13,012 bases of DNA from Candidatus Pacearchaeota archaeon (lineage in GTDB: Archaea > Nanobdellota > Nanobdellia > Pacearchaeales > GW2011-AR1). Positions within the stretch are counted from its first letter, which is position 1. The number at the start of each line of letters is the position of its first letter. Shown here in pieces: positions 1,103-1,474 of the stretch. The stretch covers positions 255,269 to 268,280 of the forward strand of contig JBNLBP010000001.1 of the NCBI GenBank assembly GCA_050302495.1. The letters are read 5' to 3'. A model generated the notes under the pieces. It did no database searches, was not told where the DNA came from, and was given only the letters and a program-made list of their open reading frames with translations. A program made the translations under genes and the position numbers.

Positions 1103-1474
1103 TTACGATTCAAACCACACTTTTGAGCTATCTTTTGGTTTTCCGTTGTAATTAATTGTTACTTCTTCTCCGGGTTTTGCCCGTCTTATACTTTTTATTA
1201 TCAAATTTTGGTTTTCTTTATCTAAAATATATTTTGCATTAGGTTTCCTATTCGAATGATTGTATAATGATCCATATCCTAATGCTATTGCAACTGATCC
1301 TTCTTCAAGTTCAAAATAGTAATTGTATAATTCGGTTTTGTCTAACTCTTCTTTTTGTTCTTCAGGTAAGATTATGAGTGGGCAGACTTCTATTGTTTCG
1401 TTTAAATCAAATCCTGTTTTTGTGAAGACCCCTCTACCTTTGCCTTTTGTTAACTTTATTTCTAAGTCTTTCAT
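1103..1474 (-). CDS. Minimal SET-domain protein lysine methyltransferase (~123 aa, vSET / Go1-SET-like)
   Basis: Three SET motifs are present. GxG (SAM-binding) appears as KGKGRGVFTK. The NHSxxPN motif appears as SLYNHSNRKPNAKY, with the canonical Cys replaced by Asn. The post-SET catalytic Tyr motif appears as GEEVTINY. The size matches single-domain SET proteins. The gene lies 30 bp downstream of the ligase gene, so it may be co-transcribed. Confidence 0.75.
   Translation of the reverse strand: MKDLEIKLTKGKGRGVFTKTGFDLNETIEVCPLIILPEEQKEELDKTELYNYYFELEEGSVAIALGYGSLYNHSNRKPNAKYILDKENQNLIIKSIRRAKPGEEVTINYNGKPKDSSKVWFES

Follow-up and report, generated by a model that had tools for sequence, protein, structure and literature searches.

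A minimal SET-domain protein of the Go1-SET type in a variable interval between DNA ligase and tbp of a Pacearchaeota-like genome

Does a short open reading frame wedged between the genes for a DNA ligase and the TATA-binding protein of an archaeon encode a working SET-domain methyltransferase, and does its position tell what such an enzyme would act on? These questions are raised by a locus within a stretch of 13,012 nucleotides, in the following called the window. The frame (positions 1103–1474, minus strand) starts with ATG and encodes 123 amino acids followed by a stop codon. It is bordered upstream by an ATP-dependent DNA ligase of 572 amino acids (1505–3223, minus strand; Pfam DNA_ligase_A_N/M/C) and downstream by the TATA-binding protein gene tbp (472–1038, minus strand; 188 amino acids, two repeats, Pfam TBP with 192.6 bits). 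A sequence-only reading had placed the frame at these coordinates and named both neighbours; the same frame was recovered here, and Pfam identifies the neighbours as described. It is quite probable, in our judgement, that the frame encodes a functional stand-alone SAM-dependent lysine methyltransferase of the Go1-SET family, carried as an accessory gene in the ligase–tbp slot of a Pacearchaeota-like genome.

The domain assignment rests on sequence profiles and on a structure model. In a Pfam profile search, the SET profile PF00856 matches residues 13–110 with 49.3 bits (E 7.3e-13, cutoff 22.4) and is covered over its entire length (1–105 of 105), which bears out the earlier suggestion of a minimal single-domain SET protein. 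A search against NCBIfam gave nothing meaningful, its best match reaching 14 bits against a cutoff of 550. The best sequence matches in the PDB are Set7 of S. pombe (5h6z, 9.7e-14) and vSET (1n3j, 9.6e-10), with MLL1/2 and SUV420H ranking after them; with a family profile as query, these two E-values fall to 1e-27 for Set7 and 1e-22 for vSET. An AlphaFold2 model calculated from an alignment of 30 sequences has a mean pLDDT of 89.3 and a pTM of 0.81, and a Foldseek comparison of this model with the PDB returned 358 chains with E<=1e-3, the 50 listed ones all being SET enzymes—led by Set7 (TM 0.75–0.80), vSET (TM 0.74/0.85) and Plasmodium PFL0690c. The global superposition of the model on knotted SET structures implies, as a prediction, that the C-terminal segment passes through the NHS loop. 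These searches confirm that the frame encodes an intact minimal SET-domain protein of the Go1-SET kind known from Methanosarcina and bacteria.

The residues expected of an active SET enzyme are in place. In the 30-sequence alignment, R14, G15, E29, P32, Y52, L65, G66, N72, H73, N79, E104, Y109, W120 and F121 are invariant, and the window protein keeps 14 of these 14 family-invariant residues. By alignment, GKGRG (residues 11–15; 1430–1444, minus strand) is the predicted N-terminal GxG SAM-binding motif; its G11, K12 and G13 are each conserved in at least 90% of the 30 sequences, and the pattern GxG-h-F/Y recurs in 136 of 141 homologs. Further toward the C-terminus, the alignment places the SET-C motif EEVTINY (residues 104–109 plus E103; 1148–1165, minus strand) opposite EEITISY(G) of vSET and EELCISY(G) of Set7. 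Its tyrosine, Y109 (codon 1150–1148, minus strand), we take to be the catalytic-site tyrosine of SET enzymes. The sequence-only reading was right in regarding the catalytic motifs as intact—GxG, N72–H73 and Y109 are all present—and in noting a conserved tyrosine, which it assigned to a post-SET region and which belongs to the SET-C motif instead. About 10 residues past this tyrosine, 133 of the 141 homologs carry an hWF motif, here V119-W120-F121, whose aromatic pair W120–F121 (1112–1117, minus strand; from the alignment) might stand in for a post-SET segment by closing the channel for cofactor and lysine. The protein holds one cysteine only (C31) and no pre-SET or post-SET zinc-cysteine clusters. 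Y82, three residues after P78–N79, presumably occupies the F/Y-switch position; a reading of product specificity from this residue was considered and dropped, as its register relative to SET7/9, DIM-5 and SET8 is tentative.

The most unusual segment is the NHS loop, NHSNRKPN (residues 72–79; 1238–1261, minus strand), as judged by alignment and by scoring of homologs. With eight residues instead of the usual seven of NHSxxPN, this loop is found only here among the 141 homologs, its spacer counting four residues as compared with three in the 135 other scored homologs. The insertion hence amounts to one residue and not to two, as had been proposed at first. The earlier description also presented asparagine in place of the canonical cysteine of NHSCxPN as a peculiarity. 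The asparagine is indeed there; its peculiarity dissolves in the family comparison, as this position is taken by Tyr in 102 of 136 scored homologs, by Asn in 14, Phe in 9, Lys in 5, Arg in 4, and Val and Gln in one each. Cysteine occurs in none of the 136—Go1-SET (NHSYTPN) and vSET (NHSKDPN) included—so that a missing cysteine does not set the window protein apart. A SET protein without the zinc-binding partner cysteines of a post-SET segment would be expected to do without it. In the two closest relatives the loop reads NHEKKAN and NHGKKAN, as opposed to NHSYxPN in the family, and these sequences suggest that the loop near the cofactor pocket is relaxed or retuned in this small lineage. Given the unique insertion next to the cofactor pocket and the loop variation in the closest relatives, specificity or activity may differ from that of Go1-SET. 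The eight-residue loop itself is a variant trait of one member and leaves the homology unaffected.

A drifting loop could also be the mark of a degenerating or catalytically altered pseudo-enzyme. In the same direction points the pace of the gene, which evolves faster than its neighbours: amino acid identity to the relatives is 66–75% for the SET protein, 79–83% for the ligase and 94–97% for TBP. Against this reading stand the complete set of invariant residues, the well-modelled loop (pLDDT 88 over residues 71–80) and the integrity of the frame, which is open in five of five related loci (the window, L081, L091, L092 and L093). Moreover, pN/pS amounts to 0.19–0.34, compared with 0.15–0.20 for the ligase and 0.04–0.07 for TBP, with synonymous sites being saturated between the genomes (pS ~0.7); these ratios indicate that the SET gene is constrained by purifying selection. 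We therefore deem a decayed enzyme very unlikely. The GC content of the gene (0.30) lies inside the local range of 0.26–0.35 and carries no compositional signal of recent transfer.

Where does this protein belong within its family? A search of 5.8 billion proteins yielded 725 homologs, and all of the listed ones carry PF00856. Apart from one identical protein and two close clusters at 75% and 65% identity, they are mostly ~45–54% identical and come mainly from Methanosarcina and bacteria. Among GTDB species representatives, at least 558 loci hold a relative; the best 80 of them belong to Methanosarcinales, two Methanomicrobiales and many bacteria, the latter including Saprospiraceae, Chitinophagales, Planctomycetota and Endozoicomonas. 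A metagenome scan with the single protein added two distant loci at 41–43% identity and no synteny information. In an NJ tree, the window protein groups with its two close relatives in one clade in 200 of 200 bootstraps. This trio adjoins a Methanosarcina clade—the Go1-SET orthologs, its nearest outside group—in 74 of 200 (37%), which is weak support, so that no claim on a donor or an origin is made. As an observation of its own, a homolog on a contig labelled as a Gammaproteobacteria MAG (L007, CAZGHY010000013.1, 6001–6369) joins the Methanosarcina clade in 121 of 200 bootstraps, which points to a Methanosarcina contig binned wrongly or else to a recent transfer between domains.

Relatives with 30–47% identity are also encoded on 72 viral contigs of IMG/VR (L094–L165). 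Several of these contigs are 100–320 kb long, and it appears that large viruses commonly carry members of this family. On one contig of 200 kb (L095, IMGVR_UViG_3300028549_000507), the homolog at 2986–3382 is split by a frameshift into an N-terminal (2986–3138) and a C-terminal piece (3194–3382), being either a pseudogene or the product of a sequencing error; with 60% identity in its best segment it had come up as a close relative, and it was rejected as a frameshifted homolog on a viral-labelled contig.

Four groups of known proteins allow for a comparison. The Methanosarcina cluster among the homologs includes AAM32541 / MM_2845 of Methanosarcina mazei Go1, identified by its accession. A review (PMC3980110) equates AAM32541 with Go1-SET, the earliest SET protein of archaea to be characterised, which reportedly methylates in vitro both bovine H4 and MC1-alpha, a nucleoid protein. 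The window protein is 49% identical to it (E 4e-38) and collinear from end to end over 124 columns with 3 gaps. Both are single-domain proteins, of 123 amino acids here and of 128–134 in Go1-SET and its Methanosarcina orthologs, and they share GKGRGVF, LGYGSLYNHS, EE(I/V)TINYN and the C-terminal VWF. They differ in the loop, where Go1-SET has NHS-Y-x-PN and the window protein has the additional residue together with an exchange of Tyr to Asn, and in their hosts—a methanogen and a Pacearchaeota-like DPANN archaeon. MC1 is not known from Pacearchaeota. As MC1 is moreover lineage-restricted (PMC7613761), the substrate of Go1-SET may be absent from this host.

vSET (PBCV-1 A612L, PDB 1n3j/3kma), a viral histone H3-Lys27 methyltransferase by its PDB molecule name, is likewise minimal with ~120 amino acids; it also has no pre-SET or post-SET cysteine clusters, and its NHSKDPN does without the cysteine. 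However, it shares only ~32% identity with the window protein, the alignment stops at its ISYG and leaves the VWF segment of the window protein unmatched, and it comes from a virus of eukaryotes, whereas the window gene lies among archaeal housekeeping genes. No PHROG match hints at a viral context in the window, where the surroundings are TBP, ligase, L15e, MetRS, SOD and tRNA-Ile. S. pombe Set7 (5h6z) is the best match among solved structures (34% identity, Foldseek E 1.6e-10) and is annotated there as a histone methyltransferase; with 169 amino acids, this nuclear enzyme of a eukaryote has extra C-terminal sequence, and its NHS motif is NHDRHPN. Taken with the identity to Go1-SET, the rank of vSET among the top sequence and fold matches upholds the early assignment to the Methanosarcina and vSET kind. 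Small bacterial SET proteins, finally, show 43–52% identity at the same length and with the same motifs, and are stand-alone with no conserved partner gene; they come from another domain of life, and their close members are uncharacterised and hence add no functional information.

The surroundings of the gene were compared across related genomes. Homologs of the ligase at 71–85% identity number in the hundreds, and the named ones among them come from Candidatus Pacearchaeota or plain 'archaeon'; by these sequences, the host resembles Pacearchaeota (DPANN). All contigs compared that carry a ligase ortholog share the backbone L15e ... DUF7670 – ligase – [X] – TBP – KH/PNO1-like, in which the interval X differs strongly. 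Of 11 ligase–tbp intervals sampled, two hold SET (the window and L081), one is empty, with tbp following 103 bp after a ligase of 83% identity (L082), and eight hold unrelated cargo: two unannotated reverse-strand genes (L083), SLFN_AlbA_2 with one unannotated gene and CNNM (a contig of 119 kb), four small unannotated genes (L084 and L085), unannotated genes with TrmB, a YafQ-like toxin and NUDIX (a contig of 43 kb), or SLFN_AlbA_2 with or without one unannotated gene (L089 and L090). Three short contigs with close SET relatives (L091, L092 and L093) show the gene directly upstream of tbp as well, which makes five of five SET-bearing loci with this order. Throughout the ligase–tbp loci compared, SET in the slot is confined to the small lineage of the window itself. 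The simplest reading is that ligase and tbp are ancestral neighbours and that the stretch separating them is a hot spot for accessory cargo. As a side observation, this interval (1039–1504 of the window) may represent a small accessory or defence islet. With no matches from PADLOC or PHROGs, the idea that SET belongs to some established defence system or phage module was dropped.

This variability bears directly on a function deduced from the neighbours. Ligase, SET and tbp are co-directional with gaps of 30 bp and 64 bp, SET lies upstream of tbp wherever it occurs in the slot, and there is no obvious long oligo-T terminator past its stop codon; along the lines of the sequence-only reading, which took co-transcription with the ligase as likely, SET might work together with its neighbours by methylating the ligase, PCNA or TBP. 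However, ligase and tbp adjoin with or without SET, and the shared orientation is not specific to the three genes, since an entire block of 9 kb from TrmB to orf75 is co-directional. Furthermore, in 65 loci with SET homologs from other genomes there is no ligase, TBP or other neighbour conserved across phyla; what recurs is lineage-local, for example transporters or membrane proteins, and gives no hint at a substrate. With a variable slot, an inference from neighbours loses its basis, and the role in chromatin, replication or transcription-factor methylation that the sequence-only reading derived from them fails on synteny, the slot being empty or filled with unrelated cargo elsewhere. More generally, guilt by association with ligase and TBP is seen to disappear once related genomes are compared.

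The upstream regions, compared by eye, are suggestive only and leave a joint transcript of ligase and SET possible. The 30-bp spacer between ligase and SET (1475–1504, minus strand) reads TAA-ATTTTTAAAATAGATTAGTTCGCTTTCTTA-ATG and holds both a T5 run and the TATA-like element TTTTTAAAATA (1503–1493, −29 to −19 from the ATG), which is not statistically distinctive at a genome GC of 30%. L081 carries CCTTAAAAAC at a similar distance before its SET gene, and comparable A/T-rich elements precede the starts of L15e, TrmB, SOD, Rbr and mem101 in the window by ~20–35 nt. Such elements are suggestive of TATA boxes as archaea use them for mRNAs with a short leader or none; SET may likewise be transcribed from a TATA-like element of its own, giving a leaderless or near-leaderless mRNA. 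The spacer between SET and tbp (1039–1102, minus strand) is the putative promoter region of tbp. It contains CTTTATAAA (1075–1067, −37 to −29 from the tbp ATG), a TATA element that is invariant in nine related loci regardless of the gene upstream; the regions compared include L081 8420–8496, L082 3275–3350, L083, L085, L090 and L091. As this element stays the same whatever lies upstream, tbp appears to have its own conserved promoter. Altogether, we regard a functional unit of SET with ligase or tbp as unlikely. As a further observation in this spacer, the near-palindromic ATTTATAAAGG (1052–1042) lies ~5–15 nt before the tbp ATG in the window and its closest relatives. The two predicted sites of the TBP-binding type before tbp suggest a possible autoregulation of this gene.

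For the preferred reading of an active, free-standing methyltransferase in an accessory slot, a course of action can be sketched from the family. The GKGRG and N72–H73 elements would hold S-adenosylmethionine, while the NHS loop and the C-terminal segment would form the SET knot. The substrate lysine would then enter a narrow channel lined by Y109 and W120–F121 and become methylated. The gene itself was probably gained once by an ancestor of the small lineage and inherited vertically since.

The substrate is a matter of graded expectation. Histones or nucleoid proteins are the targets of the characterised close relatives: MC1-alpha and H4 for Go1-SET and H3K27 for vSET, with Set7 also being described as a histone methyltransferase. 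By analogy with them, the most likely class of substrate would be abundant basic proteins of small size that bind nucleic acids, such as a histone, Alba or another nucleoid protein, for which we see somewhat less than an even chance. No gene for a nucleoid protein is encoded within the window. Most members of the family belong to bacteria that lack histones, and no neighbour is conserved across phyla, so that a chromatin substrate stands as an analogy only. An active enzyme might also have a substrate outside chromatin, for instance a ribosomal protein, a translation factor or a metabolic enzyme, as is the case for several SET enzymes of eukaryotes and probably for many of the bacterial homologs. 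As most of the family is bacterial—among the at least 558 genome loci, it is mainly found in free-living bacteria and has no conserved partner gene—this is a serious alternative, and the substrate data for Go1-SET stem from in vitro work only. With every characterised close relative targeting histones or nucleoid proteins, however, we hold it to be possible and rather doubtful.

A more far-reaching proposal is that the DPANN archaeon, as an episymbiont, uses a horizontally acquired SET protein on chromatin proteins of its host cell. Bacterial pathogens and a chlorella virus methylate host chromatin proteins with SET enzymes. Bacterial SET effectors have been documented (PMC3980110). By this analogy, the gene would possibly come from a Methanosarcinales-like partner or a virus, and the unique insertion in the NHS loop would reflect a retargeting to host chromatin. 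The gene is accessory and sits in a variable slot, Methanosarcina is the outside group closest to it in the NJ tree, and the family occurs on viral contigs—all of which would fit. On the contrary, no export signal is evident in the SET sequence, the grouping with Methanosarcina carries the low bootstrap value given above, and PADLOC and PHROGs show no defence or phage families. An effector role is, in our view, highly improbable, and so is the specific scenario of acquisition and retargeting. If it were true, the protein would parallel, in an archaeal symbiont, vSET and the SET effectors of bacteria.

Under the reading we favour, a functional Go1-SET-type enzyme as accessory cargo, the minimal methyltransferase family is extended to a DPANN lineage, in which the gene is accessory. 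A description of such a SET protein in DPANN was not found in the literature searched; its occurrence there may hence be unreported, and it is not mechanistically surprising. Should a substrate be found, this would be the second archaeal example of SET-mediated protein methylation, and one in a very small genome.

The remainder of the window, with a GC content of ~0.30 throughout, encodes L15e, an Fe/Mn SOD, a rubrerythrin-like protein, MetRS, a TrmB-type regulator, an MFS transporter and a tRNA-Ile; the frames at 9226–9717 and 11761–12273 have no Pfam match. The tRNA-Ile (anticodon GAT; 6182–6258, minus strand; Rfam 66.3 bits, ARAGORN) lies between the genes of a 101-aa membrane protein and a zinc-ribbon protein. 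At 6299–9121 (minus strand), the TrmB-type regulator (8402–9121), the MFS transporter (7000–8412) and the zinc-ribbon protein of 237 amino acids (6299–7012) follow each other with overlaps of 11 and 13 bp, and likely form a true operon, in contrast to ligase, SET and tbp. Near the end of the window, a frame of 155 amino acids with a TTG start (12437–12904, minus strand) shows a weak, below-cutoff match to SLOG (LDcluster4) and falls where the GC content of the window is highest (0.40 as compared with ~0.31).
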